The position numbers and the translations under genes were made by a program. Shown one piece after another: positions 1 through 45,760 of a stretch of DNA of 64,000 nucleotides. Positions within the stretch are counted from its first letter, which is position 1; every line of letters begins with the position of its first letter. The notes beneath the pieces were generated by a model. The model saw only the letters and a program-made list of their open reading frames with translations. It was not told the DNA's origin and made no database searches. The DNA lies in the NCBI GenBank assembly GCA_013336225.1, contig JAAXUC010000003.1, positions 9,564-73,563 on the forward strand. Direction: 5' to 3'. The stretch comes from Candidatus Moraniibacteriota bacterium (GTDB taxonomy: Bacteria > Patescibacteriota > Minisyncoccia > Moranbacterales > GWC2-37-73).

Positions 1-1813
1 TTTCAAGACAGTGGATGCTGCCGATGGCAATTCAGCTTTGGCCACCACGGCAGAAGTCAATGTTTATGATGATGCAGGTCTTACAAATTTAATTAAAACC
101 GCGAATGATACTTTAAGTGTCACGCATGCAGTCAATGTCGCTGGTCTGGAAGAAAACAAAACCTATTACCTCAAAATTACAGCCACCGACAGCTCTGTCG
201 AATCCAATCCCAACAGATCTGAAACTGTGCAATATTTGAGCACGGTGCCTGAGAAATATATTTTCACCACGGCTGGAGTTTTGTCTAGCATCACCAACAT
301 CAAGGAAGCCATCATTACAGGTGACAAAGCGGTCATTACCTTCAACACCAATCAAAACGCCAAATGTTTGATTGACTCTAAAGACAGTCTTTCTTCGGTG
401 TATAACAATCTGGCTGACAATCTGGAAACTGGCTTTTTCACCAATCACTCCATCACTCTCAACAATCTGATTGAAAAAACTGCCTATGATTACAAAATCA
501 CTTGTGTGGATGACGGCACTGCTAGCATCATGTCAGATGAACATCATTTCACCACTCAAGAAAAAGGATTAACTCAAGGAGAGATGGATGCTATGTCTGA
601 CAACACCGCCCCAGTGATTAGCAGTGTTTCTTTGGACAAGGTGACAGGAGAAAGTGCCACCATCACTTGGAACACGGATGAGGTGGCCAATAGTTTGGTT
701 GCCTATGAAACAGAGGGAGCTTCCTATACCTTAATGTCTGGGGATTACACAGTGAACGCAGATGTTACAAAATACAGCACAGCGCACAGTGTTATTATTA
801 ATGGAATTATTCCAGCTTCCAAATATACTTTCTCTGTAATTTCAACAGATGTTTCTGGCAATATTGCGCAGTCTGCAGAGGCTGGGTTCACCTCCAAAGA
901 GCCATCCTCGCTTTCTTCGATTAAAGTGCTTTCCAAAGCACTTGGACAAGCCACGGTTACTTGGACAACTGGACAAGCAACCTCATCTTTGGTGGAATAT
1001 GGGCTTTCCATGGCGTATGGTCAAACCAAGCAAGACAATTCCAAGGTCAAGGAGCATTCCATTTTGCTTTCAGATCTGACTCCAGGCGAAACATATCATT
1101 TCCGAGTGAAAGGAGAAGATGAACAGAAAAATGTTTTTGCTTCCTCCGACATCACTTTCCAACCAAAAGCTCCGCCAAAAATTTCAGATTTCAAAATTGA
1201 TGAAATTACGGAACATGGTGCAACTGTGAAATTCAATACTAATGTTTCAACTGATGCACTTGTTTCCTTTACCAACACTGATGATGATAAGGATGCAGGC
1301 GTGCAAGGACGACCAGATTATGTTTCCAAACATGAAATCAAGCTTGCGGGACTCACTTCTGGTGCAAGCTTCTCAGTCAAATTGAAAGTTCGCGATGAAG
1401 ATGGCAATGAAACGGAAGAAACATTTGCCAATTTCACCACCACCAAAGACGAGAATCCTCCAGTGATCGATCGCGTCAAAACTGATGCAGCCTTGACTCA
1501 AACTGACAAAGTTCAAGCCATCATCTCTTGGACCACTGATGAAATGTCCACCGGAGAAGTGATTTACAAGGAAGGCAAGACAGGAGACGAAAAGAAATTT
1601 GAAGTGAACAGTTCTCCAAGCTTCTCGCATATTGGAGTCATCACCAGTTTCAAAGCTGGAGTGGTATATTACTTCAAAGTCAAATCAATCGATCAAGCTG
1701 GCAACGTTGCCAATTCAACTGACTACGCAGTGCTCACTCCCAAGAAAAGACAAAACATCATTCAGGTCATCATTGGAAACTTCACCGACATCTTCGGTTG
1801 GGCGAAATTCTAA
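1..1813 (+). CDS. C-terminal 600 aa of a giant Ig/Fn3-like surface protein (5'-truncated by window start); paralog of the 2581-aa protein
   Basis: The ORF at 11..1813 is open to the window edge. It has repeated Ig/Fn3-like modules (…GNVANSTDYAVLTP…). Its last ~120 aa are identical, and its last ~370 nt ~95% identical, to the 3' end of the CDS 3440..11185. Confidence 0.75.
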   Translation, partial: FKTVDAADGNSALATTAEVNVYDDAGLTNLIKTANDTLSVTHAVNVAGLEENKTYYLKITATDSSVESNPNRSETVQYLSTVPEKYIFTTAGVLSSITNIKEAIITGDKAVITFNTNQNAKCLIDSKDSLSSVYNNLADNLETGFFTNHSITLNNLIEKTAYDYKITCVDDGTASIMSDEHHFTTQEKGLTQGEMDAMSDNTAPVISSVSLDKVTGESATITWNTDEVANSLVAYETEGASYTLMSGDYTVNADVTKYSTAHSVIINGIIPASKYTFSVISTDVSGNIAQSAEAGFTSKEPSSLSSIKVLSKALGQATVTWTTGQATSSLVEYGLSMAYGQTKQDNSKVKEHSILLSDLTPGETYHFRVKGEDEQKNVFASSDITFQPKAPPKISDFKIDEITEHGATVKFNTNVSTDALVSFTNTDDDKDAGVQGRPDYVSKHEIKLAGLTSGASFSVKLKVRDEDGNETEETFANFTTTKDENPPVIDRVKTDAALTQTDKVQAIISWTTDEMSTGEVIYKEGKTGDEKKFEVNSSPSFSHIGVITSFKAGVVYYFKVKSIDQAGNVANSTDYAVLTPKKRQNIIQVIIGNFTDIFGWAKF

Positions 1814-2084
1814 AATTTCGTCCAAACGAAAGGAAAGGGGTCGGGAAAACCTGGGTTTTCCCGTTGCGGAAGTTCTGAAACCGCTGGGTTTCAGGGAGCG
1901 AAGCGACTTGGATGCGGCTAAGTTTTAGAACTTAGACCAGACAAATCAAAGGGGGTCGGGGAAAAGAATTTTCCCCGTGGAAGGAAAGTTTTGAAAAACG
2001 TGGGTTTTCAAGGAGTGAAGCGACTTGGTTGCGGCAAATTCTAAAATTTCGTCCAAACGAAAGTAAGGGGGTCGGGAAAGAATT
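1808..2084. repeat. Tandem ~115-bp hairpin-rich repeat (2.3 copies) directly after the stop of giant gene 1; a related copy at 11186..11340
   Basis: The units begin ...aatttcgtccaaacgaaagg..ggggtcgggg... Each has two short GC hairpins (gggaaaacctgggttttccc, gaaaccgctgggtttc). The unit ends (cgacttggttgcggcaaattctaa / ...ggctaagttttag) mimic the gene's last codons (ttcggttgggcgaaattctaa). Confidence 0.8.
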
Positions 2085-2122
2085 AAAAAACTCACTCAAA
2101 TAAAATTGAGTGAGTTTTTATA
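2085..2122 (+). terminator. Rho-independent terminator
   Basis: aaaaaactcactcaaataaaattgagtgagttttta: a 9-bp stem followed by a T-run. Confidence 0.7.
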
Positions 2123-2213
2123 TGTGAATACTTTTTTAAAAAAATATTGTTGGATTACACGCCTTATGGTATAATTTTTATATAAGAATATATTTATTTG
2201 GTATCTGTATATT

Positions 2214-3371
2214 ATGCAAAAAATAAAAAAAATCATTGCAAAAATAAAAAACTGGCTCACCGATCATTATCACATCCTCTTTAAATCAGCGGCAGAAAAT
2301 CATCTGCGCATTCAGGAGTTGGCGAAAAATGCTGACGGAACTTATCAACTCACCGTTAAATTTGGTTCCTATTCTGAACTGAAAAATTATCAAAAGAAAA
2401 TGCGCCGACTGACAGTTTCTCTTTCTTCGGCGATGGCTATGGTCATAGTGGCATTTATTGTGGCACCCTACGTTATGAATCCGAGTCGCTCCAGCGCGGC
2501 TAATTTTTTGTGGAGTCAGAGCAGTTGGAGTGGAACAGCAGCAGCAACTAGCACCACTAATAAAACAACTTGGACAGGTTATGTTTCAAAAGATGTAAAC
2601 ATCAATGCAACTGCGGTCACCACAGCTGATCACACTGCTAACACCTTGTCGCTCACTCTACCGACAGCGGCAACCACGGGCGAAGCCAAAGTGATTGATG
2701 TAGGGCATGATTCCACTTTTGCTGCCAATCTGGCGGCCAATCCTAATGCAGGTTTTTATACAGATGCAAGTGGTAATTTGACATTAAAACGTCTTGATGG
2801 GGCAAATTGCACCAACGCAGATCAATGCGTAAGTGCCTTTTGTAGTAGTATTGGTAATGTGTGTGGACATGTTACAATTGTTTGGCTGACAACCACAACT
2901 ACAAGTGGTGCCCTTGGAGGGCGTAGTGGTGCTGATGCAATTTGTGCGGCTGACGCAGGCAGGCCAGATGCAACAAACATAAAGGCATTTTTGAGCGCCA
3001 GTCCTACTGACACGATTGCGAGCATGGCAGGCACATCTTATCCTGCCGCCACGCCGATTTTCTGGTATAAAAAAACGCCTGTGACATTTACTTTGCTAGC
3101 CAATAACTGGGCAGATATGTTAGATGGAAGCATAATAAATGCTGGTTCTGCAACAGGGTTTATTAGCTCTTATATATACTCATTTTCCACGTCGACTGGT
3201 ACTCTCGCGGGATCGATTTGTGGAACTTACAATTGTTCGTGTGGAACTGCAAGCGCTGGTAACGGTTATACTTTTAATAATGCAAATACGGACGCTTCTT
3301 GGATAGCAACTATTAAAACTAATTCTTGTGTTCAAACCAGTAGTAAGATAATGTGCATCGGCACCTTTTAA
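2214..3371 (+). CDS. Hypothetical membrane-anchored secreted protein, Thr/Ala-rich with a Cys-rich C-terminal half
   Basis: 385-aa ORF with one N-proximal TM segment (LSSAMAMVIVAFIVAPYV), then a T/A/S-rich region and many Cys (NCTNADQCVSAFCSS…GADAICAADAG). I recognise no family. Confidence 0.5.
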   Translation: MQKIKKIIAKIKNWLTDHYHILFKSAAENHLRIQELAKNADGTYQLTVKFGSYSELKNYQKKMRRLTVSLSSAMAMVIVAFIVAPYVMNPSRSSAANFLWSQSSWSGTAAATSTTNKTTWTGYVSKDVNINATAVTTADHTANTLSLTLPTAATTGEAKVIDVGHDSTFAANLAANPNAGFYTDASGNLTLKRLDGANCTNADQCVSAFCSSIGNVCGHVTIVWLTTTTTSGALGGRSGADAICAADAGRPDATNIKAFLSASPTDTIASMAGTSYPAATPIFWYKKTPVTFTLLANNWADMLDGSIINAGSATGFISSYIYSFSTSTGTLAGSICGTYNCSCGTASAGNGYTFNNANTDASWIATIKTNSCVQTSSKIMCIGTF

Positions 3372-3439
3372 TTTCAGGATAATCCAGATAGTGATGAATT
3401 TAAAGAGTAATTTCCAGTGTAATTAGGAAAAATAAAAAA

Positions 3440-6400
3440 ATGAACAAAGTAAAAATGAAAAAAATAGCAAAACAAGAATTTGACAGCGTGAAAAAAAAAC
3501 TCTTTTCACTTGGTATTATTTCCATCCTTGTTTTTTTATTGTGCGCAAATATGTCAAGCGCTGCAGTAAACAGTGCAACCTATGACAGTGCCATCAAAAG
3601 CTTTGCTGGCGTGCCGAGCCCGACATATGAAACAATGAGCTGGGTATCATCTGATGGTAGACAAGGTGACTTGCTCGCTGGAGTTAATCTTATTATTAGT
3701 GGACTATCTCCAACCACAATGACTCCCTATGGAGTTGCTGTTGATTCTATTAATAATCTATATGTTGTAGATTATGGTAATAATCGCATCCTAAAGCGTA
3801 GCGAGGATGGCACAACCTGGACAAACATAACTATCAGTGGTTTGGCTCTAAATTCCTTTAACTCTCCGTTTGCGGTTGCAACAGACTCAGTTGATAATTT
3901 ATATGTTTCTGACTCTGGCAACAATAGAATTTTAAAGCGTAGTGCGGATGGCACAACCTGGACGGAGATAACGATTAGTGGACTCACTCCAAGTACATTT
4001 AGCAATCCTAATGGTACTGCCTTAGATTCCATTGGCAATTTATATGTTTCTGATTCTGGCAACAATAGAATTTTAAAGCGCAGTGCGGATGGAACAACTT
4101 GGACAGACATAGTAATTAGTGGACTTACTCCAAGTACCTTCAGTAACCCTCGAGACGTTAAAATTGATTCTTCTGGCGTTTTGTATGTTGCTGACACAAC
4201 AAATAATCGCATTTTAAGACGTAGCGCAGACGGCACAACCTGGACAAATATAACTATCAGTGGACTTACTCCAAGTACATTTAATTTGCCTTATAGGGTT
4301 ACAGTTGATTCATCTGATAATTTGTATGTTTCTGACCTTAACAATAATAGAATCTTGAAGCGTAGCGCGGACGGCGCAACGTGGACCAAGATAACTATTA
4401 CCGAATTAACACCGGGCACATTTAGTCAGCCCGTAGGATTGGCGATTGATCGAAAAGGAGCTTTATATGTTGGTGATTATGGCAATGGGCGAGTGATAAA
4501 ACTTTATTCTGGAACCTCCATTACAATGCGAGTGCGAACTGGTAATGCAACCATGTCAAATGCGGCTGCTTGGTCAAGTTCTTGTGATGTTGCTTCAAGT
4601 GGGGCAAATATAGGAATTGAAAATCCCTGTGTGCGCAGTGGCGATCAATATGTGCAATACCAAGCAATTTTAAGTACAGACGTTGGCATAAATACACCAT
4701 CTCTCTCTAGTGTTACTATTGCAACACAAACGACGTATGCACAATCCTTTCTCAATCTGATTTCTTCACCTTTTAATACTGGAAATGCAAACAATTCAGT
4801 GCAAAAAATCACCTGGAGCGCCAGCAATGATGCGGGCAGTGACCCTGCTCAAGGCACGGTGCAGTTTCAGCTCAGAACTTCGCCTGACAATGTGACCTGG
4901 GGACAATGGTGCGGTCCAACTGCTTGCGATGCAGCTCCTGGGGGAGGAGTCAGTGATTTTTACACAGACAAAGCTGGCGCAACTGCGATCAATGTAGCTC
5001 AAAAAGATTCCAATGGGGATCAATGGATTCAATATGCCACATTTTTAAAGTCAAACGATGGAACCACCACCCCAACACTTTCTAATGTCACTATGCAATA
5101 TGCCTACAATGTACCGCCGGCAATCACGATTGATTCAAATCCTGCCAATCTGAAACAAACTTCAACTGGAACTTTTCAAGTGCCATATACCCTTAGTGAA
5201 ACATATGATGATCTTGGAGTTATTGCACACGGCACGGCAGCAGCTCCTATTAAAGCTTTGCTTTTCTATCAACCAAAAAATGATGTGACTTTAAATGGAG
5301 CAACTCCTTCTGGTCAATCCACAACTGCCGTGACAAAGATTTGGGGAGTGGGTGGAACTGACGGCAACACAGCTGCTGGAAATTACACTTTTACTGTACC
5401 TGCGGGAGTTACTAATATTCGCGACATCGAACTCGCTGGAGGCGGTGGTGGTAGTGGTGCTTGCGTAAGCAGTGTTCTTGGCGGTGATGGTGGAGCAAGT
5501 ACGCTGACTTATGCCAGCTTATCAAGAGGAGTTGCTAGTGGAGGTACGGGTTCAGGTTATGATGGTTCTGTGGATGCTTGCACTACTGGCAACGATAGTA
5601 CAGCTACGAATATTATTGGAGGAGTCAACACTGCTGGAGCTGGCGCTAATGGTAGCACCCTTGGTGGAGGAAAAGGAGGATTAATTTCTGGTGGAAGCCT
5701 CGCTGTTACTCCTGGAAGTCAAGTTAATTTGATTGTTGGGGCTGGAGGAATTGCTGCAACTGGTGGCACGGCTGGCAACATGGGTTGGATTAAAATCACC
5801 TACGATGTCACTTCTGAAGGCGCACAAACAACTGGACTTGTTTCAATCAATAATCCAAGTAATGTGCCAATTCCTAGCACTGGCTCAATGCTGATTGACA
5901 ATGAGCTCATGACTTTTGATTCAGTTGGCGCAACCGGCAATCAGCGAAACATCACCGGCCGAGCTGCAACTTTTGCAACCTCGTATTCAACTACTGCAGT
6001 TTCTCATACTACTAGTAGCCCTATCTTTTTTGCAACTTCTGCCTCAATTCAAACAATCGACACTTTGATTGAAACTGACACACCTGGAGCGCAAGCCACA
6101 ATCAATAACACTTTCATTTGGGATCCACGTGCTGATGCCACCAATAATCTCAGTGGCAATAAGCTTGATGGTGCATTGTTTAAAGTGGTGGCCAATGACG
6201 CAGATGCAAGCAATTTCAACACCATTGGGCAAAGCGCAACAACTGGCGCACAGACTATTGATCTCCAAGCTCCAACCATCACCTCCATCACCACTGATGA
6301 AGCTCACACTGCCACGGGAGCAAACATTTTGTATCTCAACAAAAATTCTGCTCAGATTCCACTGACAGTAAATTTCTCAGAAAACATCAGTTTTGATGCC

Positions 6401-9400
6401 ACTGGCGGCAAAACCATTACCCTGACTCTAAATTCAGGCACTTGCACGATTGCAGAATCTATTTTAAATAGCAATGTGGCCACTTGTCAGTATGCAATCG
6501 GCGCAGATGAAGAAACTCCGGTTGGGGAAAAATTGAAACTCGCAGCTCCATTTGTTGCTGCCAGCACTGCCATCACAGATGGTTTTGCCAATACTCTGAC
6601 CAATTTCACTCCAGCCGCCAATCTGGACGCTGCTACCAATATTGTCATTGATAATATTGCTCCAACTGCCAATGACTTGACTGACATCATCACTAAAGAC
6701 CAATTCACTTCAGCCAATCTTAATGCTCAAGATTCAGACGGTTCAGGCATCGCCAGTTACGCTTGGTCAAAAGTTTCCGGACCTGGCACTATCACTTTTG
6801 GTTCAAGCACTGCCAGTGAAACAACGATCAGTGCCAACACAGATGGGCCATATGTTTTGCAAGTTGTCATCACTGACAACTCAGGCAATGCCATCACTAA
6901 AACTCTAAACTTGATTTGGGATACAACCAATCCGGCTAACATTTCCAAACCAAATGTGCCAAGTCTGACCAATGACAACACTCCCAACATCACTTGGGAT
7001 CAATTCACTGACGCCAATGGCCTTGAAAAATATGAGGTGCAAAGAAAGACTGACACAGTGGGTGACAATTTTGCCACCATCCAAACAATCACTGATACCG
7101 CCACACTGGAAACTGCCAACCCAACCTTCACTGAAAGCACACTGGCTGATGATACATATTTCTATCAAATCATCGCCACTGACAAAGCTGGCAATGTCCA
7201 GACAAGTCCAGCTTCAGATGCCATGACGGTGGACACGATTGCTCCAACCCTTTTGTATTTCTATTCAACCTCTCCTGACTCAACCGTGCTGGACCCAACC
7301 GCTTCAGGCAACATCAATTTAGTGGCTGTCTATGACGAAGCAGTGAACACCGGAAATGTGCAGGTGAGAGTGGGACCAATGAGCGCCACAGTTAATGTCA
7401 CTTTGGATCAAGTTCTGGAAACAACCAAACTGCAAGGTAGCTTTACTATTGGTGCTCCAAGAACAGGCTATGACACCACACCTGATCCGCTTAAGATTGA
7501 ACAAATCTTGGCGCAATCAGTGAGCGATCAAGCTGGTAATGTCCAAGCTCAAACTCTGGCTACAATTGAAGACAATATGAACTTGGTAGCGCGCGGAAAT
7601 TCAATCATCATTGACACCACCCCGCCGATTCTCAACAGCTTCACCATTGAAAACAACAGTGTCACTGCTTTCAAACAACAAAACAATGCTTTCACTTTGG
7701 TGGCCAATTACAACAAAACTATTCAAGCAGGTGGCAACTTGAAAGTGAAACTCAACACTGGCTCAAGCTCACCTGAAATCACTTTGACCAACTCTGCGGC
7801 CGGCAAAAAACTGACAGCTTCCTACAGCGTCCAGGCAGATGAAAATGCCAATGACTTGAAAGTGGAAGCTGTGCTGGAACAAAATGTGCTGGATGGCAAA
7901 GGAGCTCCTGCAAACTACATTGGAAATATTTTGGATGGAACGTATGCAGCTAATGCTGGAGACCCAGTGATTAATCTTGCCGGTTTCCAAGTTGACACTG
8001 CTGCTCCGACATTGGGCGCAACGCCAATTGCGATTCAAAACAGCAATGGTAAAACCAGTGATTCAACTCCAACCATCACTTTAAGCGCCACTGATAACTT
8101 CAATCTTTCCAAAGCCATATTCTCACTCAATAGTGGAACTGCTTGGTGCGCTCCGATTTCATACGGCACTGCAATTAACACTTTTGACATCACCAGCATT
8201 GCTTGCGGGGGAAGTGCGACTAATGGCATTAAAACTGTGACTGTTAAATTTGTTGATGCGGCTGGCAATGAAAGTGCAGCTTCCGCTGCCAGTGTGGAAT
8301 TTGATGATTCCAAACCGCAACTGCAAACCATCACCACCGATACAATCACTGGAATTTATGGCCCAGGCACTGTCATCAAAATCATTGCCACTTACGATGA
8401 AGCAATTACTAGTGGAAGTCTCAGTTTGATTTTGAACAATGGAAAACAATTGAATCTGAGCACCATTGAAAATGGTAATACACTCACAGCAACCTACACA
8501 GTTGGAGATTTGCTTGAAGACACCAATAAATTGAAAGTGGCAACCATTGTTTCGCAAAGCGTTGCTGACACTTCTGAACCTGTTAATACCCAGGATTCAA
8601 CCAGTCTTGCCGGCATCACTGAGAATCTGGACACCAACAAGACAGTTGAGATTGACACCACTGCTCCAGCGGCAACAGTGACCGTTGACCGCTCCAAAGA
8701 TAACAATCAAATTCATCTTGATGCCACTGACAAAAACTCTGCCAACATGCAAGCTGAGATTTTAGTGTTGGAGTCAGAAACAGGAACTTGCAGCTTCACC
8801 AATAACTGGATTTCCTATGCTGACAATGTGGACACAACTTTGATTGAAAATACTGCCAGCTCCAGAAAAGTTTGTGCTCGCTTCAAAGATGAGTTGGGCA
8901 ATGTTTCAAATGAAATTGCAGTTATCATTCCCGAAACTCCAAGTGGAGTTCAAATCGATGACATTTCCAACAGTGAAATTCCATTTTATGGTTCCATGCT
9001 GACTTGGTCCATTCCAACCATCAAAGGAACCAACAATGGATCTGGCGATGCTTTTGCTCAATATGAAATCGCCAAATGTGGTCCAAGTGAAAGTGAAGAA
9101 TGCACTCCTGATTTTGCGCAGTTCACCAGCATCACTGACATAAGCAGGAACTACTTTGTCAGTGACAATCTCACTGCCGAAAAATTCTATTGCTATCAGA
9201 TGCGTTTCAAAGACATGCATGGAGACTATTCCAAACTTTCAAAAAACACTTGTTTCCAAGCAGGTCATGCTCCAGCAGTGACTGATTCGCAAGTTTCAAT
9301 CATTTCAGGAAATCCTGATGACATTCAGATTGGAAATGTGACCGAACAAGGTGCAACTGTCTTTTTTCAAACCAAAGATTCTAAATACAACCGCCCAATA

Positions 9401-11185
9401 GCTACCAAAGCTCAAATAGAAGTATTCACCAGTCCAACCTTGAGTGCTGACACCTTGGTGGCAACAACTCCGATTGAATCAGAATTTGCAGTGGTGCACA
9501 CCATTCATCTTTCTGGACTTACCAGTGGCACTCAATATTATCTCAAAATCACCGCCACTGATTCCTCAACCGCTGACAATGAGGGTCGAACCGGTGTTCT
9601 TGCTTATAGTGCTGATGGAATTCCAACTCTGTCTTTCTCCACTCTTGGCACTCTTAAAACCATCAGCAATATCGATGAATCAATCGTCACTGATTCCAAG
9701 GCTGTCATTACATTTGTCACCGACCAAGATGCTAAATGTTACATTGACTTTAAGGACTCGCTCAGTGCAACCTATAATGATCTCTCAGACAGTTTGGAAA
9801 AAGATTTCTATAAGAATCATTCCATCACACTGACGCAGCTTCTTTCCAAGACAGCCTATGACTACAAGATTTCTTGTATCGATAAAAATGATGTCACAGT
9901 GACAGCTGATGAACATCACTTCACAACAACTGAGAAAGGTTTAACTCAAGGTGATGTGGATGCTCAATCTGACAATACTGCTCCTGTGATCAGCAGTATT
10001 TCTCTGGACAAAGTGACAGGGGAAAGCGCCACCATCACTTGGAACACGGATGAGGCGGCGAATAGTCTTATCTTATATGAAGTTGAAGGCTCAGATTTTA
10101 CGATAGTGGCTGGCGATGCAATTGTGATTTCTGACATTAAGGAATATGCAACAACTCATTCAGTGGCCATCAATAATTTGATTCCTGCAACAAAATACAC
10201 CTTCATTTCAATGTCAACTGACACAGGCGGAAATATTGCGCAGTCTTCGCAATCATCATTCACAACCAAGCAACCATCTGGTCTTTCCTCGGTGAAAGTT
10301 GTTTCCAAAGCTCTTGGACAAGCCACAGTGACCTGGACAACAGGACAAGCGGTTTCATCCTTAGTGGAATATGGGCTAACCACGGGATATGGGGATAAAA
10401 AAGAGAGCAATACAAAAGTAAAAGAACATGAGATTACAATAACTGACCTTAAGGCTGGTGAAGAATATCATTTGCGCGTCAAAGGAACGAGTGACGCTGG
10501 TGAACTTTTTGCATCCTCCGACATTACTTTCCAGCCCAAGGCTCCTCCAAAAATTTCAGATTTCAAGATTGATGAAATTACAGAACACGGCGCAACTGTG
10601 AAATTCAACACCAATGTTCCAACTGATTCACTGATAACCTATACCGATGCTGATAAAGAAGAAAATTCAGGCTTTCAAGGAAAACCAGAAGTTGCAACCA
10701 AACATGAAATGCAACTCAAAAACATGGAAAGTGGAAGAACGTATGGAATTAAGTTGAAAGTTCGCGATGAAGAAGGCAATGAAACTGAAGAAACTTTCCA
10801 GAATTTCACCACTACTAAAGACGAGAAACCTCCAGTGATCGATCGCGTCAAAACTGATGCAGCCTTGACCCAAACTGACAAAGTTCAAGCCATCATCTCT
10901 TGGACCACTGATGAAATGTCCACCGGAGAAGTGATTTACAAAGAAGGAAAAACAGGAGACGAAAAGAAATTTGAAGTGAACAGTTCTCCAAGTTTCTCAC
11001 ACATCGGAGTCATCACCAGTTTCAAAGCTGGCGTCGTGTATTACTTCAAAGTCAAATCAATTGATCAGGCTGGCAACGTTGCCAATTCAACTGACTACGC
11101 TGTGCTTACTCCCAAGAAAAGACAAAACATCATTCAGGTCATCATTGGAAACTTCACCGACATCTTCGGTTGGGCTAAGTTTTAG
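3440..11185 (+). CDS. Giant (2581 aa) surface protein: signal/anchor, 6-bladed NHL-repeat beta-propeller, Gly-rich region, many Ig/Fn3-like domains
   Basis: Single uninterrupted ORF. The N-terminal hydrophobic segment is ISILVFLLCANMSSAA. There are six ~40-aa NHL-type repeats (…LYVSDSGNNRILKRSADGTTWT…), a Gly-rich block (GGGGGSGACVSS…) and repeated Big/Fn3-like modules. The C-terminal 600 aa is paralogous to CDS 1..1813. Confidence 0.85.
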   Translation: MNKVKMKKIAKQEFDSVKKKLFSLGIISILVFLLCANMSSAAVNSATYDSAIKSFAGVPSPTYETMSWVSSDGRQGDLLAGVNLIISGLSPTTMTPYGVAVDSINNLYVVDYGNNRILKRSEDGTTWTNITISGLALNSFNSPFAVATDSVDNLYVSDSGNNRILKRSADGTTWTEITISGLTPSTFSNPNGTALDSIGNLYVSDSGNNRILKRSADGTTWTDIVISGLTPSTFSNPRDVKIDSSGVLYVADTTNNRILRRSADGTTWTNITISGLTPSTFNLPYRVTVDSSDNLYVSDLNNNRILKRSADGATWTKITITELTPGTFSQPVGLAIDRKGALYVGDYGNGRVIKLYSGTSITMRVRTGNATMSNAAAWSSSCDVASSGANIGIENPCVRSGDQYVQYQAILSTDVGINTPSLSSVTIATQTTYAQSFLNLISSPFNTGNANNSVQKITWSASNDAGSDPAQGTVQFQLRTSPDNVTWGQWCGPTACDAAPGGGVSDFYTDKAGATAINVAQKDSNGDQWIQYATFLKSNDGTTTPTLSNVTMQYAYNVPPAITIDSNPANLKQTSTGTFQVPYTLSETYDDLGVIAHGTAAAPIKALLFYQPKNDVTLNGATPSGQSTTAVTKIWGVGGTDGNTAAGNYTFTVPAGVTNIRDIELAGGGGGSGACVSSVLGGDGGASTLTYASLSRGVASGGTGSGYDGSVDACTTGNDSTATNIIGGVNTAGAGANGSTLGGGKGGLISGGSLAVTPGSQVNLIVGAGGIAATGGTAGNMGWIKITYDVTSEGAQTTGLVSINNPSNVPIPSTGSMLIDNELMTFDSVGATGNQRNITGRAATFATSYSTTAVSHTTSSPIFFATSASIQTIDTLIETDTPGAQATINNTFIWDPRADATNNLSGNKLDGALFKVVANDADASNFNTIGQSATTGAQTIDLQAPTITSITTDEAHTATGANILYLNKNSAQIPLTVNFSENISFDATGGKTITLTLNSGTCTIAESILNSNVATCQYAIGADEETPVGEKLKLAAPFVAASTAITDGFANTLTNFTPAANLDAATNIVIDNIAPTANDLTDIITKDQFTSANLNAQDSDGSGIASYAWSKVSGPGTITFGSSTASETTISANTDGPYVLQVVITDNSGNAITKTLNLIWDTTNPANISKPNVPSLTNDNTPNITWDQFTDANGLEKYEVQRKTDTVGDNFATIQTITDTATLETANPTFTESTLADDTYFYQIIATDKAGNVQTSPASDAMTVDTIAPTLLYFYSTSPDSTVLDPTASGNINLVAVYDEAVNTGNVQVRVGPMSATVNVTLDQVLETTKLQGSFTIGAPRTGYDTTPDPLKIEQILAQSVSDQAGNVQAQTLATIEDNMNLVARGNSIIIDTTPPILNSFTIENNSVTAFKQQNNAFTLVANYNKTIQAGGNLKVKLNTGSSSPEITLTNSAAGKKLTASYSVQADENANDLKVEAVLEQNVLDGKGAPANYIGNILDGTYAANAGDPVINLAGFQVDTAAPTLGATPIAIQNSNGKTSDSTPTITLSATDNFNLSKAIFSLNSGTAWCAPISYGTAINTFDITSIACGGSATNGIKTVTVKFVDAAGNESAASAASVEFDDSKPQLQTITTDTITGIYGPGTVIKIIATYDEAITSGSLSLILNNGKQLNLSTIENGNTLTATYTVGDLLEDTNKLKVATIVSQSVADTSEPVNTQDSTSLAGITENLDTNKTVEIDTTAPAATVTVDRSKDNNQIHLDATDKNSANMQAEILVLESETGTCSFTNNWISYADNVDTTLIENTASSRKVCARFKDELGNVSNEIAVIIPETPSGVQIDDISNSEIPFYGSMLTWSIPTIKGTNNGSGDAFAQYEIAKCGPSESEECTPDFAQFTSITDISRNYFVSDNLTAEKFYCYQMRFKDMHGDYSKLSKNTCFQAGHAPAVTDSQVSIISGNPDDIQIGNVTEQGATVFFQTKDSKYNRPIATKAQIEVFTSPTLSADTLVATTPIESEFAVVHTIHLSGLTSGTQYYLKITATDSSTADNEGRTGVLAYSADGIPTLSFSTLGTLKTISNIDESIVTDSKAVITFVTDQDAKCYIDFKDSLSATYNDLSDSLEKDFYKNHSITLTQLLSKTAYDYKISCIDKNDVTVTADEHHFTTTEKGLTQGDVDAQSDNTAPVISSISLDKVTGESATITWNTDEAANSLILYEVEGSDFTIVAGDAIVISDIKEYATTHSVAINNLIPATKYTFISMSTDTGGNIAQSSQSSFTTKQPSGLSSVKVVSKALGQATVTWTTGQAVSSLVEYGLTTGYGDKKESNTKVKEHEITITDLKAGEEYHLRVKGTSDAGELFASSDITFQPKAPPKISDFKIDEITEHGATVKFNTNVPTDSLITYTDADKEENSGFQGKPEVATKHEMQLKNMESGRTYGIKLKVRDEEGNETEETFQNFTTTKDEKPPVIDRVKTDAALTQTDKVQAIISWTTDEMSTGEVIYKEGKTGDEKKFEVNSSPSFSHIGVITSFKAGVVYYFKVKSIDQAGNVANSTDYAVLTPKKRQNIIQVIIGNFTDIFGWAKF
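3725..4505 (+). repeat. Six ~120-bp direct nucleotide repeats inside the CDS, encoding the NHL blades
   Basis: Segments such as caataatagaattttaaagcgtagtgcggatggcacaacctggac recur with ~120-bp period. Confidence 0.7.
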
Positions 11186-11340
11186 AACTTAGCTCGGACA
11201 AATCAAAGGGGATCGGGGAAAAGAATTTTCCCCGTGGAAGGAAAGTTTTGAAAACCGTGGGTTTTCAAGGAGCGAAGCGACTTGGTTGCGGCAAATTCTA
11301 AAATTTCGTCCAAACGAAAGGAAAGGGGTCGGGGAAGTGC
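11186..11340. repeat. Copy (1.3 units) of the ~115-bp repeat that also follows giant gene 1
   Basis: aacttagctcggacaaatcaaaggggatcggggaaaagaattttccccgtgg…gcggcaaattctaaaatttcgtccaaacgaaaggaaaggggtcgggg; ~95% identical to 1927..2080. Confidence 0.8.
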
Positions 11341-11344
11341 AATC

Positions 11345-11375
11345 TTGCTGCAGTATTGATATTTTGTGATATAAT
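11345..11375 (+). promoter_or_regulatory. Putative sigma70-type promoter with extended -10 (tgaTATAAT) for the REC gene
   Basis: ttgctg …19 nt… tgatataat, ~35 bp upstream of ATG 11410. Confidence 0.3.
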
Positions 11376-11409
11376 GGAGTTAACGATAAAATAGTAATAA
11401 AAAAATAAT

Positions 11410-11826
11410 ATGACTGACAATAAAAAAACAGTGCTCATCGCAGAAGATGAAGATGATTTGCGAGAAATGTATACCATGGCTTTGACTGGTAAAGGTTATG
11501 AAGTTCTGCAAGCTATAAATGGTGTGGAAGCTTTGGATTGGCTCGAGAAGAGCTACACCCAAATAGATTTAATTCTTTTGGATATCGTAATGCCGGGTAT
11601 GGATGGCTTTGAAACTTTGGGAAAAATCAAGAAGCAAGAGAATTACGCTCATATCCCCGTGCTTGTTTCAACCAATCTGGACAATGACGAAGATCGTGCT
11701 CAAGCTTTAGGTATGGGCGCCAAGGATTACTTTGTCAAATCTCAACATACTCCCTCAGAATTGGTGGAAAAGGTGAATGATGTGTTGAAAATAGAGGCAG
11801 AAGAAATTGCCAGAAAACTTATATAA
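11410..11826 (+). CDS. Stand-alone response-regulator receiver (CheY-like REC) protein
   Basis: 138 aa. It has DED near the N-terminus and the conserved phospho-acceptor context LLDIVMPGMDG. There is no output domain. Confidence 0.8.
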   Translation: MTDNKKTVLIAEDEDDLREMYTMALTGKGYEVLQAINGVEALDWLEKSYTQIDLILLDIVMPGMDGFETLGKIKKQENYAHIPVLVSTNLDNDEDRAQALGMGAKDYFVKSQHTPSELVEKVNDVLKIEAEEIARKLI

Positions 11827-11828
11827 AA

Positions 11829-12004
11829 GGGTATTAATACCCCAGGGCAAGCCCTGGACCCTTTGGGCTCACGAGGCAAGACACGTCGCTCGCGAGCGAA
11901 CATGTCAAGCCTCGAGGTATTAAACCTTTTGGTATCGTCGCTCACCGCCAGCTGGCGGACGGAAATGATTGTCTGCTGACAAATCATTTCGCTCGTTTCG
12001 CTAG
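11829..12004 (+). other. GC-rich multi-hairpin intergenic element (possible structured ncRNA or stability element)
   Basis: Consecutive hairpins: gggtattaataccc, cagggcaagccctgg, gtcgctcgcgagcgaac, ccgccagctggcgg, gaaatgattgtctgctgacaaatcatttc. GC is much higher than in the flanks. Confidence 0.3.
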
Positions 12005-12034
12005 ATAATAAAAAATATCTTTAGCAGTATTTGC

Positions 12035-12066
12035 AAAAAACGTTCACAATGAACGTTTTTTGTTTT
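12035..12066 (+). terminator. Rho-independent terminator
   Basis: aaaaaacgttcacaatgaacgttttttgtttt. Confidence 0.7.
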
Positions 12067-12151
12067 ATCGATTGACTAAAAAGGCAAATAGCTGTAAAGT
12101 ATAGGATGCACGATAAGATTCTTTTAGGGCTAGAAATAGCCAAAAATTCCT

Positions 12152-13471
12152 ATGAAAAGCACGAAAAAAATTGAAAATAAAGTGGAACTGCTCGCGCCGG
12201 CTGGCAGTCCTGAGAAGCTTAAGTATGCCATCAAATATGGAGCTGATGCTGTCTATTGCGGAGTGCCGGATGTTTCAATGCGCGCCCGCGTCAACACTTT
12301 TTCAGAAAAAGACATCTTAGAGGCAGCTGAATATGTGCACAGTGTTGGCAAGAAAATTTATGTGACTTTGAATATTTATGCCCACAACTACCACTTGCCA
12401 AAAATCGAAGCGCATTTGAAATTTTTGAAAAAGGCAAATATCGACGCTGTCATCGTGGCTGATCCCGGCGTGATTGCGTTGGTCAAAAAACATTTGCCAA
12501 AAGTGGCAATCCATCTTAGTACTCAAGCGAATGTGACCAATTGGCAAGCAGCAAAATTTTGGCACGACCTGGGAATCGTGCGCATTGTGTTGGCTCGCGA
12601 AGTCACCTTGGCAGATATTTTGGAAATACGAAAGCATGTGCCCAAACTGGAATTGGAATATTTTGTGCATGGAGCAATGTGCATGAGCTATTCTGGACGC
12701 TGCATTTTGAGTAAATGGATGAGTGGCAAAAGCGCAAACTTGGGAGACTGCACGCAACCATGCAGATGGGGCTATAAAGCAATAGAAAATGTACAAAACA
12801 CAAAAGACAATAAAGGTGGATTGCAAAATGTAGGAGAATGCAAAACCATGGAAGTTGAGGAAGTTCAGAGTGGACGACCAGTTTTGCTGGAAGAGGATTC
12901 ACATGGGACATATTTTTTTAATAGTAAGGATTTGAATCTCTTGGCGCATTTGCAGGAACTTAGAAATGCGGGCGTGACGTCGTTTAAAATTGAGGGGCGC
13001 AATAAGAGCGTGTTCTATGTGGCCAACGTCTGCAGGGCCTATAGGAGCGTACTGGACGCTATTGAGGGTGAAAAAACAGCTCAAGCGATCAGTAAAATTG
13101 AAAAATTGGCAGCCAAAAACCTTGAAAAATTGGCAAATCGTGGCTACACCAAAGGATTTTTGCTGGGAAATGAACCAGAACATGGATTTGGCGGGCAACA
13201 ATCCAATGGAGAATTTCAATTTGTGGGTGAAATTTTGGCCAGTGATGGTAAGGAATTGACTGCTAAAATTCACAATGTGGTGAAGCCTGGCGACACTCTG
13301 GAAATCATCACAAAAGAAAAAAACATTGCAGTTAAGATTGGTGCCATCTATAATAAAGATAGGGAAGAAGTTGTTTCAGCTCATGGCGGACATAAGGATA
13401 TTTATTATATCAAAATTGATAAAAATAATATTGAGCCATATTCATTGTTAATGAAAATAATTAATAAATAA
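12152..13471 (+). CDS. Peptidase U32 family protein (collagenase-like; RlhA/PrtC family)
   Basis: The N-terminal VELLAPAGSPEKLKYAIKYGADAVYCG… and overall 439-aa architecture are typical of U32. Confidence 0.8.
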   Translation: MKSTKKIENKVELLAPAGSPEKLKYAIKYGADAVYCGVPDVSMRARVNTFSEKDILEAAEYVHSVGKKIYVTLNIYAHNYHLPKIEAHLKFLKKANIDAVIVADPGVIALVKKHLPKVAIHLSTQANVTNWQAAKFWHDLGIVRIVLAREVTLADILEIRKHVPKLELEYFVHGAMCMSYSGRCILSKWMSGKSANLGDCTQPCRWGYKAIENVQNTKDNKGGLQNVGECKTMEVEEVQSGRPVLLEEDSHGTYFFNSKDLNLLAHLQELRNAGVTSFKIEGRNKSVFYVANVCRAYRSVLDAIEGEKTAQAISKIEKLAAKNLEKLANRGYTKGFLLGNEPEHGFGGQQSNGEFQFVGEILASDGKELTAKIHNVVKPGDTLEIITKEKNIAVKIGAIYNKDREEVVSAHGGHKDIYYIKIDKNNIEPYSLLMKIINK

Positions 13472-14502: not shown

Positions 14503-14612
14503 AATTTCGAATTCTGAATTTCGAATTTCGAATCAAGCTTGAATGATTGAATGTTTAAAAAATTAAAACATTAAAAATTCATTCAAAATTCAAAATTGGA
14601 AATTTAAAATTA
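14503..14612. repeat. AT-rich imperfect palindromic element built from heptamer repeats (gaatttc x3 … aattcaaaattcaaaatt); family X copy 1
   Basis: Near-identical copy at 61488..61595 and a degenerate copy at 40020..40078. Confidence 0.7.
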
Positions 14613-19974: not shown

Positions 19975-20005
19975 ATTGTAATTTAGATATGTGCAATATA
20001 TAACT

Positions 20006-20116
20006 TTTGTTTCACCTGTTTTTTCTTGAAGCCGTAGCGAGGAGCGCGAGGTCCGAGCGAGCAGCCATAGATTTCGGCTGCGAAGCGTGCTCTCAAGAGA
20101 AAACAGGTAAAACAAA
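20006..20116. repeat. GC-rich ~110-bp palindromic intergenic element, copy A (terminal inverted repeats gtttcacctgtttt…aaaacaggtaaaac)
   Basis: Core gaagccgtagcgaggagcgcgaggtccgagcgagcagccatagatttcggctgcgaagcg. Copies at 25434..25548 (inverted) and 59278..59388. Confidence 0.8.
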
Positions 20117-20196
20117 AATAGTTTTCTTCTATTCTCGGAATTTTATATCACATATGATCTTATAAATCGATATAATCAAATAAATATTCAAACAAA

Positions 20197-25433: not shown

Positions 25434-25548
25434 TTTTGTTTCACCTGCTTTCTCTTGAGAGCACGCTTCGCAGCCGAAATCTATGGCTGCTCACTCGGAC
25501 CTCGCTCTCGCTCGCTATGGCTTCAAGAAAAAGCAGGTTCAACAAAAG
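25434..25548. repeat. GC-rich palindromic element, copy B (inverted orientation)
   Basis: Its reverse complement aligns with copy A/C over ~105 bp. Confidence 0.8.
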
Positions 25549-36408: not shown

Positions 36409-37458
36409 ATGGATATTAAAAAACTCGAAAATTTTTTGCAAGAAAATAACTTGCCCAAGTTTCGTCTGGGGCAAATTCAAAAAGCCATCTTTACTGATGG
36501 AGCTTTCTCATTTTCTGAAATTACCACTTTATCAAAAGAACTCCGAGAAAAAATGGAAAGTCAGTTGCGGTTGCTTTCCTTTGAAACTGAAAAAGTTTTA
36601 GTGGCTAAAGATGGGCAATCCATCAAGGCACTTTTGAAATTGCATGATGGAGATTTGATTGAAACCGTTTTGATCGCTCCCAAGCCTGGCATTTGGTCTG
36701 CTTGCATCTCTTGCCAAGTTGGTTGCGCAATGGGCTGTCGGTTTTGTGCAACTGGCAAAATGGGATTTAAGCGTGACCTGACTGCTGAAGAAATCACTGA
36801 TCAAGTTTTGTTTTGGAGGCAATATCTGAAACTAAAAGCTAAAAGCGAAAAGCTAAAAGCTGAGGAAGTTTCCACCATTGTATATATGGGAATGGGGGAG
36901 CCTTTTAATAATTGGGATAATGTTTCTGAGAGTATTAAAAATCTGACAGATGAAAAATTGTTTGGTTTCGGCTCGCGCTCAATTTCTGTTTCAACTTCTG
37001 GCATTGCAAGTGGGATTGAAAGAATGGCCAATGAGTTTCCTCAGATCAATCTGGCAATTTCATTGCATTTTGCCAGTGACAAAAAACGCGATCTCTATAT
37101 GCCAGTCAATAAGAAAGACAATTTGGAATCTTTAAAAAATGCACTGAAGGGATATTTCACCATCACCAATCGCAAAGTATTTTTGGAATATATCATGCTG
37201 GATGGAATTAATGACACCGCGCTAGATGCTAAAATGCTGGCAGATTTCATTTATTCCATTGGCAGCACTCATCTTTTACATATGAATCTGATTCGCTACA
37301 ACATGACCAGCGATCCGCCAGCTGGCGGACTGCAGCCTTCTTCCAAAACCAGAACGCAAATTTTCAAGCAGGAATTAGAGAAGCATCAGGTGCATGCCAC
37401 CATTCGAAAAAGTCTCGGCGAAGAAATTAAGGCAGCCTGTGGACAGTTAGCCTCTTAG
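36409..37458 (+). CDS. rlmN: 23S rRNA (A2503-C2) / tRNA methyltransferase RlmN (radical SAM)
   Basis: GCAMGCRFCATG radical-SAM motif and the conserved distal Cys. It contains an in-frame 9-bp tandem repeat insert (36829..36864; KLKAKSEKLKAEE). Confidence 0.85.
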   Translation: MDIKKLENFLQENNLPKFRLGQIQKAIFTDGAFSFSEITTLSKELREKMESQLRLLSFETEKVLVAKDGQSIKALLKLHDGDLIETVLIAPKPGIWSACISCQVGCAMGCRFCATGKMGFKRDLTAEEITDQVLFWRQYLKLKAKSEKLKAEEVSTIVYMGMGEPFNNWDNVSESIKNLTDEKLFGFGSRSISVSTSGIASGIERMANEFPQINLAISLHFASDKKRDLYMPVNKKDNLESLKNALKGYFTITNRKVFLEYIMLDGINDTALDAKMLADFIYSIGSTHLLHMNLIRYNMTSDPPAGGLQPSSKTRTQIFKQELEKHQVHATIRKSLGEEIKAACGQLAS

Positions 37459-38307: not shown

Positions 38308-38406
38308 AATGATGAATATTAAATATTTAAGTTTAAGATGTATTTATACGAAATACAAAATACGAGATACAAAATACATTATACTTTCTTTATTTATATC
38401 ACGAAA

Positions 38407-41659: not shown

Positions 41660-42472
41660 ATGACAATTTTTCAAGCAATTTTCTTGGGAGTCTTGCAGGG
41701 GTTGGGGGAATTTTTGCCAATCTCATCCACGGCACATTTGATTTTGCTGCCCTGGTTTTTTGGTTGGGATGATCCTGGCCTTTCTTTTGATGTGGCTTTG
41801 CATGTCGGAACTTTGGTTGCAGTGGTGGCATTTTTTTGGCGCGACTGGCTTACTATTTTTCAGCTTTCGCTTCAAAAAATTTCAAATTTCAAATTTCAAA
41901 TTTCAAATTCTGAGGCGTACCCGCCTCAGTTGCTCTGGCTCTTGGTTATTGCCTCGGTGCCTGGGGCAATTTTTGGATTCATGCTGGACAATAAAGCGGA
42001 GGAAGCTTTTCGTAGTCCATTGCTGGTTGCATTTACACTTAGTGTGGTTGGTCTCGTTTTGTTTTTGGTTGATAAATATGCCATACATCGCAAGGAAATT
42101 GGAGCCATCACCAAAAAGGATGCACTTTTGATTGGTTTGTCACAAGCAATTGCCATTATTCCAGGCGTGTCACGTTCTGGCGCAACCATGACAACTGGAC
42201 TTTTCTTAGGTTTGTCGCGCGAGCAAGCCGCGCGTTTTTCTTTCTTGCTTTCTACCCCGATCATTTTTGGGGCAGCGATAGTGAAAGTACCTCAGCTATT
42301 CAGGGCTGGAATTACCATGCCGCTATTGTTTGGAATCCTGGCTGCCGCCATCAGTGGCTATTTCGCCATTAAATATATGTTGAAATTTATTGCGAAAGTT
42401 GGATACGCACCTTTCTTTTACTACAGAATTGTTTTGGCTGGCTTAATTGTATTGGTGTATTTCATGAAATAA
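41660..42472 (+). CDS. uppP: Undecaprenyl-diphosphatase (BacA/UppP)
   Basis: GEFLPISSTAHLIL signature, 270 aa. It contains an in-frame heptanucleotide repeat tract (41875..41910). Confidence 0.85.
   Translation: MTIFQAIFLGVLQGLGEFLPISSTAHLILLPWFFGWDDPGLSFDVALHVGTLVAVVAFFWRDWLTIFQLSLQKISNFKFQISNSEAYPPQLLWLLVIASVPGAIFGFMLDNKAEEAFRSPLLVAFTLSVVGLVLFLVDKYAIHRKEIGAITKKDALLIGLSQAIAIIPGVSRSGATMTTGLFLGLSREQAARFSFLLSTPIIFGAAIVKVPQLFRAGITMPLLFGILAAAISGYFAIKYMLKFIAKVGYAPFFYYRIVLAGLIVLVYFMK
41875..41910 (+). repeat. Tandem 7-bp repeat (aaatttc x ~4.5) inside the uppP coding sequence
   Basis: aaaaaatttcaaatttcaaatttcaaatttcaaattc encodes KISNFKFQISN. The unit length is not a multiple of 3. Confidence 0.8.
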
Positions 42473-45568: not shown

Positions 45569-45576
45569 TATGAATG

Positions 45577-45650
45577 TGGGCTTATCAAGATTCGAACTTG
45601 AGACCTCGTCATTATCAGTGACGCGCTCTAACCAGCTGAGCTATAAGCCC
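45577..45650 (-). tRNA. tRNA-Ile (anticodon GAU)
   Basis: The reverse complement folds as a cloverleaf: GGGCTTA-TA-GCTCAGCTGGTTAGAGC-G-CGTCA-CTGATAA-TGACG-AGGTC-TCAAGTTCGAATCTTGA-TAAGCCC-A. CCA is not encoded. Confidence 0.85.
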
Positions 45651-45666
45651 ATATTTTTACTTAATA

Positions 45667-45739
45667 TGGATCTTGTGGACCGGACAGGACTTGAACCCGC
45701 TACCTCCTCAGTGCAAGTGAGGCGCTCTACCAGGTGAGC
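45667..45739 (-). tRNA. tRNA-Ala (anticodon UGC)
   Basis: GGGCCGG…CCTCA-CTTGCAC-TGAGG…CCGGTCC-A. It has the G3:U70 alanine identity pair. Confidence 0.85.
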
Positions 45740-45760
45740 TACCGGCCCATATTATGCTTT

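Follow-up and report, generated by a model that had tools for sequence, protein, structure and literature searches.

Two giant genes of a Candidatus Moraniibacteriota bacterium end in almost the same sequence, and each stop codon is followed by a short tandem array of a hairpin-rich unit of ~115 nt. What is this unit, and why does it accompany these gene ends? We addressed the question in a 64,000-nt stretch of contig JAAXUC010000003.1 (assembly GCA_013336225.1, positions 9,564 to 73,563 of the forward strand), hereafter called the window; coordinates are those of the window, and the features of this locus lie on its + strand. An initial annotation had proposed two functions for the unit, namely a recombination or cassette-exchange substrate for C-terminal domains of surface proteins, or a repeated attenuator or RNA-stability module. 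As described below, we give an even chance to the reading that the unit is a transcribed, family-specific, selected and structured RNA module of the 3' untranslated region (3' UTR), which probably protects or processes the mRNA 3' end and whose copy number changes by recombination at the copies of the gene end (pseudo-ends) that it carries. The unit itself is a real, selected and previously uncatalogued feature of this gene family; its function is what we infer from position and structure.

The first gene (g1, 2-1813) is the 603-codon 3' part of a giant surface-protein gene with Fn3/Ig repeats, cut on its 5' side by the window edge, and ends in ...IIGNFTDIFGWAKF-TAA. The second (g2, 3440-11185) is a complete paralogue of 2581 aa with NHL, PKD, Ig and Fn3 repeats, the same C-terminus as g1 and a TAG stop codon. 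In BLASTP, g1 was 67% identical to the end of g2 over 607 aa and the final 121 aa were identical, which agreed well with the ~65% over ~600 aa and the 120 identical residues noted initially. The last ~370 nt of the two genes differ at 19 positions (95% identity, also as first estimated), all of which are synonymous third codon positions with mixed base types. The homogenised 3' coding block as a whole comprises 1382-1813 in g1 and 10754-11185 in g2. Both genes encode a terminal GWAKF-stop with synonymous codons, GCG AAA TTC TAA in g1 and GCT AAG TTT TAG in g2, and each of these versions reappears inside the arrays; the homology between unit 3' ends and last codons, and the presence of both stop variants in genes and units, had already been recognised in the initial annotation. 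When known sorting signals were searched for in the C-terminus of the giant proteins, only sub-threshold NCBIfam matches were obtained.

Counted from the base after the stop codon, the arrays measure 271 nt, or 2.35 units, after g1 and about 152 nt, or 1.35 units, after g2, in line with the 1.3 to 2.3 copies first described. The unit is 115 nt long in type A and 116 nt in type B. Tandem Repeats Finder reported a period of 115 with 2.5 copies at 1796-2084, and a repeat search returned five in-register copies starting at 1796, 1911, 2027, 11168 and 11284. A 15-nt unit motif occurred five times (0.34 expected), a two-block unit pattern matched three times (0.00 expected), and the matches to a unit profile reached E = 1e-25. 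The shared ends and arrays are far beyond chance.

The array after g1 begins with unit U1 (type A, 115 nt, 1814-1928), which starts with the 3' arm of a stop-codon hairpin, H1, continues with a purine-rich linker containing GGGGTCGGG, and then holds the hairpins H2 (1842-1863), H3 (1875-1894) and H4 (1892-1910) and a pseudo-end (1903-1928). It is followed by U2 (type B, 116 nt, 1929-2044), with a copy of H1 at 1916-1938, H2 at 1957-1977, H3 at 1991-2011, H4 at 2009-2027 and a pseudo-end at 2020-2044, and by the terminal partial unit U3 (type A, 2045-2084), which consists of the 3' arm of its H1 copy (2033-2054), the linker and the 5' arm of H2 only. After g2, U4 (type B, 116 nt, 11186-11301) contains H2 at 11214-11234, H3 at 11248-11268, H4 at 11266-11284 and a pseudo-end at 11277-11301; it is 94% identical to U2 + U3, and is followed by the terminal partial unit U5 (type A, 11302-11337) with an H1 copy at 11290-11311. 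Each unit thereby closes with a degenerate version of the final ~25 nt of its gene, which still reads ..AA(A/G) TT(C/T) TA(A/G). The units are head-to-tail direct repeats, unlike the alternating orientation seen in bacterial interspersed mosaic elements (BIMEs), and neither inverted repeat pairs nor terminal inverted repeats were found in window positions 1-13000.

Subsequently, the position of the arrays relative to transcription signals was examined. An intrinsic-terminator-like hairpin at 2086-2119, with flanking A and T runs that make it bidirectional, closes the g1 transcript directly after the array. This was the only hairpin flagged by the terminator scan, and no unit hairpin is followed by a T-run on the + strand. 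Arrays at two loci of related organisms, L019 and L031, likewise lie directly upstream of intrinsic terminators. Since the arrays at g1, L019 and L031 stand between a stop codon and an intrinsic terminator, the units are 3'-UTR sequence. The initial statement that the unit is not a generic terminator, lacking U-tracts, is consistent with these real terminators behind the arrays. Stable structures between stop codon and terminator, as in 3'-UTR stabilisers of mRNA, are present here. Downstream of U5, the promoter-like sequence of a response-regulator gene (11410-11826) follows, and no obvious terminator was seen there. We also considered a riboswitch or attenuator of the downstream gene and rejected it: the downstream genes differ from locus to locus (385-aa open reading frame (ORF), response regulator, trpS, EamA, tRNAs), and a terminator intervenes after g1.

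The unit folds into four hairpins, H1-H4, separated by invariant purine-rich linkers; the initial annotation had counted two short GC hairpins, which correspond to H2 and H3, and had missed the first, which encloses the stop codon. In H1, the last ~8 codons of the gene form a stem with the ~17 nt that follow the stop codon, which is thereby placed in the loop. The H1 hairpin of g1 (1793-1830; 4 + 11 bp) holds the TAA at 1811-1813 and has a folding energy of -18.8 kcal/mol (z -6.7), and that of g2, a B variant (11170-11197), holds the TAG at 11183-11185 and has -13.6 kcal/mol (z -3.7); over all instances the range is -13.6 to -22.2 kcal/mol and z -3.7 to -7.8. When the 41 gene ends of the window were ranked by stop-straddling hairpins, the two giant genes came 1st and 3rd. 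H2, H3 and H4 each measure 19-22 nt, H2 and H3 being short GC-rich hairpins and H4 having the form CAAG-GA-GC(GAA)GC-GA-CUUG, which holds the invariant core of the pseudo-end, GAAGCGACTTGG. The 3' arm of the type-A stop hairpin is also a heptamer, AATTTCG, that recurs in tandem arrays elsewhere in the window.

We then asked how the stems vary among instances. In an unedited alignment of nine instances, 86% of H1 cells were paired, compared with 21-57% when the partners were slid. In two H1 pairs, both partners were replaced (U·A/A·U/G·C and G·C/A·U). These pairs face third positions of the Ala and Lys codons, and the UTR arm therefore follows synonymous changes in the gene. As a whole-unit MAFFT alignment put the hairpin arms out of register, H2 and H3 were aligned by hand. 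In this hand-curated set, H2 was 93% paired with three covarying pairs, and H3 was 98% paired, with covariation at two pairs and an indel that affects both arms. RNAalifold recovered H1-H3 independently and added H4, whose variation consists of wobble-compatible changes only. Across the stems, G·U cells outnumbered A·C cells by 14 to 5 (p = 0.06). The G·U excess and the wobble changes in H4 favour an RNA structure on the sense strand. With the Rfam 15 covariance models, only two tRNAs reached the gathering score in the window; positions 1700-2250 gave no meaningful match up to E = 10, and the related loci L027, L031 and L035 gave none at all up to E = 1.

Two further pairings were considered. 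A putative closing helix GGGGUCG/CGACUU is invariant on both strands, but it is broken in U4 and would compete with H2. In the other, the 3' arm of H1 would pair with the pseudo-end that follows it and make a translation-sensing switch; this was rejected, because the pseudo-ends, checked by hand, showed no covariation with that arm. Separately, GGAAACTTC (1775-1783 and 11147-11155, codons -12 to -10) has synonymous sites that are invariant in all ten lineages and is complementary to GGAAGTT, the invariant linker that separates H2 from H3 (1867-1873), so that a long-range pairing might be possible.

The unit was next compared between species. Type A and the unit that follows two paralogous genes, X and Y, of a UBA12142-like organism are 92% identical (8 differences in 99 positions), whereas in the neighbouring coding sequence identity is 63% at the third positions of same-amino-acid codons (30 differences in 81; p = 2.5e-6). 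Between species, change in the unit is thus about fivefold slower than at the synonymous sites next to it. The same tendency was seen within the genome, where the non-coding part differs at 9 of 152 positions and third positions at 19 of 123 (p = 0.015). In the last 20 codons, synonymous sites vary freely among ten lineages. The few differences between the units of the two species are mostly found in stems, as compensating pairs, and the purine-rich linkers are identical. Furthermore, the pseudo-end core GAAGCGACTTGG is invariant in eight lineages while the homologous coding positions vary. Taken together, these comparisons indicate that the unit is kept by selection on both its sequence and its pairing.

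The distribution of the unit was examined by gene-blind scans. A search with the junction motif against one genome per species yielded a single real relative, a Candidatus Moraniibacteriota metagenome-assembled genome (L002), in which the homologous giant gene ends in ...IFGWAKF-TAG and is followed by one unit and a pseudo-end. The two-block unit pattern, used against metagenomes, identified two contigs of the same organism, each with the paralogous genes X and Y and the unit after both, and one further lineage (L019); the remaining hits were chance matches in GC-rich coding DNA. A single match to a viral contig also proved to be a chance match inside a gene, and a phage origin was rejected. 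In addition, the DNA behind nine homologous C-termini was examined. Unit variants were present at L027 and L028/L029/L030 and absent from L026, L032-L034 and L036. At L031 (about 905-1010) and L035 (about 470-573), a different insert of ~100-130 nt with inverted ends, TGTCATTCCC...GGGATGACA, stands between the gene end and a conserved pseudo-end and replaces H2 and H3; it had no Rfam match. The unit occurs in discrete subtypes (A, B and L019-type). A profile search of 290 kb, covering the window and the fetched loci, found the unit at these gene ends and nowhere else. Scattered copies without a gene 3' end next to them, which the initial annotation had named as the observation that would speak against it, accordingly did not turn up in the two collection scans or in the profile search. 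In the gene-blind scans the unit is tied to the 3' ends of this family, though it is not universal in the family, and a literature search returned no description of such an element.

Next, we compared the gene ends for signs of gene conversion. The third-position identity of g1 and g2 rises from 0.33-0.57 upstream to 0.75-0.90 in the last ~430 nt (from nt 1382). Upstream, the amino-acid identity of g1 is 0.66 to X versus 0.32 to g2; over the last 110 residues, g1 and g2 are 100% identical and each is ~80% identical to X. The two window genes are old paralogues. X and Y of the other species have no more than 30-60% identity, but a tract from about -61 to +101 around the stop codon differs between them by a single mismatch. 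This tract (~165 nt) includes the last 61 coding nt, is flanked by unrelated sequence and has its downstream edge inside the pseudo-end. Judging from sequence, these tracts indicate homogenisation across the coding/non-coding boundary by gene conversion, independently in two lineages. The conversion proposed in the initial annotation is thus supported by the third-position rise and by the X/Y tract in a second species; the word recent was not, because 10-25% of the third positions in the block already differ, and the conversion in the window is not very recent.

The arrays themselves also carry traces of change. The end of g2 matches g1 up to GGTTGGGC and then follows the U1/U2 junction from TAAGTTTTAG, the switch lying directly after GGC. 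Therefore, g2 corresponds to g1 minus exactly one unit, with a crossover inside the pseudo-end that restored AKF-stop. Furthermore, L028 and L030, which represent the same locus in different samples, cease to match directly behind the AAGGAG in the second unit (L028 10692, L030 1671). Past this point, L028 and L029 continue with the pseudo-end, a terminator and an EamA gene, and L030 continues with tRNA-Phe and tRNA-Met; the divergence reflects a true rearrangement or else a join made in assembly. Array dynamics thus seem to be partly captured by these comparisons, and recombination is the mechanism that we infer for them. A coding patch, GACAAAGTTCAAGCCATCAT(C/T)TCTTGGA (encoding DKVQAIISW), was also observed at 1506-1543 and 10878-10915 in the window and at about 3891-3928 in L002. 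This 38-nt patch (-299 to -271) is identical in the otherwise divergent X and Y and nearly so across species, and together with the conserved tail it brackets a variable segment of ~210 nt.

Partial copies of the giant genes were considered as possible donors of sequence. Several homologues called as small genes start in the middle of a domain, and the dN/dS of such partial copies is about 0.1. The idea of many 5'-truncated silent copies did not survive inspection, after which only L028 stands. Positions 1-65 of L035 are clearly an Illumina adapter and positions 1-95 of L032 are probably a degraded one, so that the genes there look 5'-truncated, and the truncation junctions of L026 and L031 lie at contig edges. 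L028 comprises about 190 terminal codons in an open frame and two units; it is 5'-truncated, starts 6 nt after the terminator of the preceding gene, has no promoter or start signal, and shows the same junction in three samples. No promoterless 5'-truncated donor copy was found in the window. The L028 copy keeps the idea of cassette exchange alive without establishing it.

On the basis of position and structure, the module would act in cis on the mRNA 3' end, as a block to 3'-to-5' exonucleases by which the message retains its stop codon, as a binding or processing platform, or as both. Structured 3' regions are known to require RNase R and PNPase for their degradation (PMC12320835). Because each unit ends in a degenerate copy of the gene end, unequal recombination between such a pseudo-end and the true end of the gene would add or remove whole units and leave the ORF undamaged. 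The module and the segment encoding the C-terminal tail form the longest similarity between the paralogues, and conversion would therefore repeatedly homogenise a tract spanning the stop codon. Several observations weigh against this reading. The outer stem of H4 overlaps the outer 3 bp of H3, and only about seven distinct unit sequences are available, so that the covariation statistics are weak; moreover, "palindrome correction" by template switching could mimic compensatory change. The unit is absent from the close homologues L026 (83% protein identity) and L036 (79%) and is hence dispensable for the gene. The reading does not account for the pseudo-end in L031 and L035, which persists although H2 and H3 are replaced there. 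Finally, invariant single-stranded linkers would be superfluous if the hairpins were simple stabilisers; the module may thus do something more specific than block exonucleases, and the linkers hint at a more specific partner.

In another explanation, stable small RNAs would be released from the 3' UTR in the form of the units, or the units would serve as a sponge that titrates an RNA-binding protein; the several GGA/AAGGAG motifs of each unit, located in single-stranded linkers, are reminiscent of CsrA/RsmA decoys. Invariant purine-rich linkers (ACGAAAGGAAAGGGG, GGAAGUU, CAAGGAG) between covarying stems fit sequence-specific recognition better than an exonuclease block, and tandem multiplication is typical of decoy RNAs such as CsrB/RsmZ. 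The window, however, contains no CsrA-type gene, and the strict linkage to one gene family suggests a role in cis; we regard this explanation as very unlikely. More improbable still, in our estimate, is that the unit is a functionless by-product of a tandem duplication that included the last ~25 nt of the gene and whose copies are similar by conversion only. Arrays with a partial last copy are indeed typical of slippage or unequal crossing-over, and the unit is dispensable in some relatives, but conservation between species far above that of synonymous sites (p = 2.5e-6), compensatory changes in all stems and the pseudo-end core GAAGCGACTTGG, invariant in eight lineages while its coding counterpart varies, all argue against neutrality.

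The alternative that the conserved tail and the units are a DNA-level recombination module, serving as a homology anchor through which paralogues and promoterless partial copies undergo conversion or exchange cassettes and thereby shuffling the upstream variable Fn3 domains, appears unlikely to us. In its favour, the near-identical tracts spanning the stop codon in two species have their edges inside units or pseudo-ends, the last codons of g2 derive from a pseudo-end, L028 is a promoterless partial copy with two units and diverges from L030 inside the array, and the ~210-nt variable segment is bracketed by two conserved blocks, one of them the 38-nt patch of X and Y. A homology anchor, however, would need neither hairpin covariation with G·U tolerance nor constrained linkers. 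The window holds no recombinase, its positions 1-13000 contain no inverted repeats, there is a single solid partial copy, tracts centred on the most conserved segment are expected in any case, and exchange of the shared part, which is the most conserved part of the protein, makes no diversity. We find it very doubtful that the unit, possibly with the last ~20 codons, is a miniature site-specific selfish element, which would insert at or replace the gene 3' end, restore the ORF with its own copy of the gene end and leave the displaced pseudo-end behind, like integrators at tRNA-gene 3' ends. No integrase or transposase was found in the 64 kb and no terminal inverted repeats were seen, 115 bp is too short for duplex circularisation, and the H1 3' arm tracks the synonymous variants of the local gene. 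The patchy occurrence among close homologues, the discrete subtypes (A, B and L019-type, with A 92% conserved across species), the different "cargo" between the same ends in L031 and L035, and the gene end and pseudo-end that bracket the insert like attL and attR would suit such an element, as would the last 61 coding nt in the X/Y tract; between species, however, the unit has not reached the saturation seen at synonymous sites of the tail, which points to constraint rather than to recent transfer of tail plus unit.

Of the two functions proposed initially, the RNA module is accordingly the better supported, by covariation, G·U tolerance, position within the transcript and conservation; cassette exchange is the less likely of the two. 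A bolder combination is decidedly unlikely, namely that the tail-coding segment and the unit form the portable 3' anchor of an antigenic-variation-like system in bacteria of the candidate phyla radiation (CPR), in which copies such as L028 would donate variable Fn3 domains to expressed giant adhesin genes. In that case, the hairpin array or its vicinity would be the starting point of conversion, and the pseudo-ends would ensure that every crossover restores ...AKF-stop. RNA structure and a role in recombination could also be two faces of one element.

Several known types of element were also compared with the unit. A miniature inverted-repeat transposable element (MITE) was rejected, since the units have no terminal inverted repeats and are not dispersed. 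A genuine dispersed MITE of ~114 nt is present in the same window at 20005-20118 and 25434-25547, in opposite orientation, 96% identical, with a GC-rich core and the terminal inverted repeats TTTTGTTTCACCTG...CAGGTAAAACAAAA; it is unrelated to the 115-nt unit and behaves quite differently, a further point against a selfish element. A diversity-generating retroelement was likewise rejected, as no reverse transcriptase domain occurs in the ORFs of the 64-kb window and the differences are synonymous and not adenine-specific. As in bypassing of the T4 gene 60 type, the stop codon lies in a hairpin (the H1 loop); translational bypass was nevertheless rejected, because each pseudo-end is itself followed by a stop codon and no ORF lies after the "landing" site. 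Nor do the units appear to be read through as coding sequence: their lengths are 115 and 116 nt, frame-shifting indels separate the A and XY units, and no frame is conserved.

In enterobacteria, repetitive extragenic palindromic sequences (REPs) occur as hundreds of dispersed copies at unrelated genes, alternate in orientation in BIMEs and are mobilised by REP-associated tyrosine transposases (RAYTs). The unit resembles REPs and BIMEs as a series of short GC-rich imperfect palindromes in transcribed DNA between stop codon and terminator, with hairpins near the stop codon. By contrast, its copies are all direct and restricted to positions behind one gene family, their first stem is partly made of coding sequence, and their linkers are invariant; no RAYT (TnpA-REP) transposase was found among the 42 ORFs of the window. 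REPs reportedly stabilise upstream mRNA and, when within ~15 nt of the stop codon, affect translation termination, findings that are attributed to Newbury et al. in 1987 and to Liang, Rudd and Deutscher in 2015. Positive retroregulators and other 3' stem-loop stabilisers of long-lived mRNAs, e.g. those of the Bacillus thuringiensis cry genes, are single terminator-like hairpins. The likeness here lies in stable 3' stem-loops on the mRNA of a highly invested structural or surface protein, with a presumed action in cis against 3' exonucleases. Stabilisers of the cry type, however, have no repeat unit of four hairpins, no embedded stop codon and no pseudo-ends.

In Neisseria, pilE and all pilS copies share a conserved 3' coding block and a downstream Sma/Cla repeat, and conversion takes place between the copies. 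The present locus is similar in its conserved 3' coding segment with a downstream non-coding repeat common to the copies, in conversion, and in one promoterless 5'-truncated copy in a relative (L028); it differs in that no cluster of silent copies was seen, the two window genes count as full-length, and the element shows covariation of the RNA type. The giant1-5 genes of Apilactobacillus kunkeei are tandem genes for giant extracellular proteins, with mosaic similarity through intragenic recombination and tracts of near identity (PMC12863079), but neither a structured 3'-UTR repeat nor a homogenised tract centred on the stop codon was described for them (PMC12863079). The unit of the present study is a compact RNA motif absent from Rfam and tied to the largest surface proteins of these CPR bacteria. 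Bacteria of this group are not culturable alone and depend on cell-surface contact with their hosts, and to our knowledge almost nothing is known of their post-transcriptional control or surface-protein dynamics. The design is unusual: coding sequence and 3' UTR co-evolve with the stop codon held inside a hairpin, and the built-in pseudo-ends would let the array expand and contract without harm to the ORF. The locus also offers a clean natural example, in two species, of conversion tracts that cross the boundary between coding and non-coding sequence. Cassette exchange, if true, would make it the first system of the antigenic-variation type proposed for CPR bacteria.

As to the surroundings, the 385-aa ORF between g1 and g2 (2214-3371) had no match in Pfam or NCBIfam. 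Its homologues are located between or upstream of giant genes in related organisms, and the arrangement with the 385-aa ORF between two giant genes is conserved; because the homologues hold the same position in relatives, the ORF probably encodes a functional partner of the giant proteins. In g2, tandem repeats of 141 nt (47 aa) close to the 5' end, at 3757-4431, correspond to NHL repeats. The rest of the window is ordinary chromosome, with genes for LeuRS, ThrRS, DnaE, NusG, L1, RNase J, GatB and similar proteins, and none of its 42 ORFs encodes a recombinase, transposase, integrase or reverse transcriptase.

Finally, several minor features were observed. Downstream of the response-regulator gene, the stretch 11827-12000 is GC-rich (up to 68%) and dense in hairpins (-70 kcal/mol, z -4.3); it had no Rfam match, and its sequence is unrelated to the 115-nt unit. 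On the - strand, adjacent genes for tRNA-Ile(GAT) and tRNA-Ala(TGC), the usual pair of the rRNA spacer, lie at 45576-45748, with no rRNA gene in the window. Many intergenic regions contain short arrays of 7-nt tandem repeats (14503-14611, 36832-36861, 38346-38378, 41877-41909, 47274-47386, 58790-59022, 61490-61609 and 61850-61874), and the combination AATTTCG x4.4 ... ATTCAAA x4.4 occurs at two distant sites of the window. Other heptamers, CTACAAC and TAACTAG, were observed in the downstream regions of L024 and L036 in related genomes.

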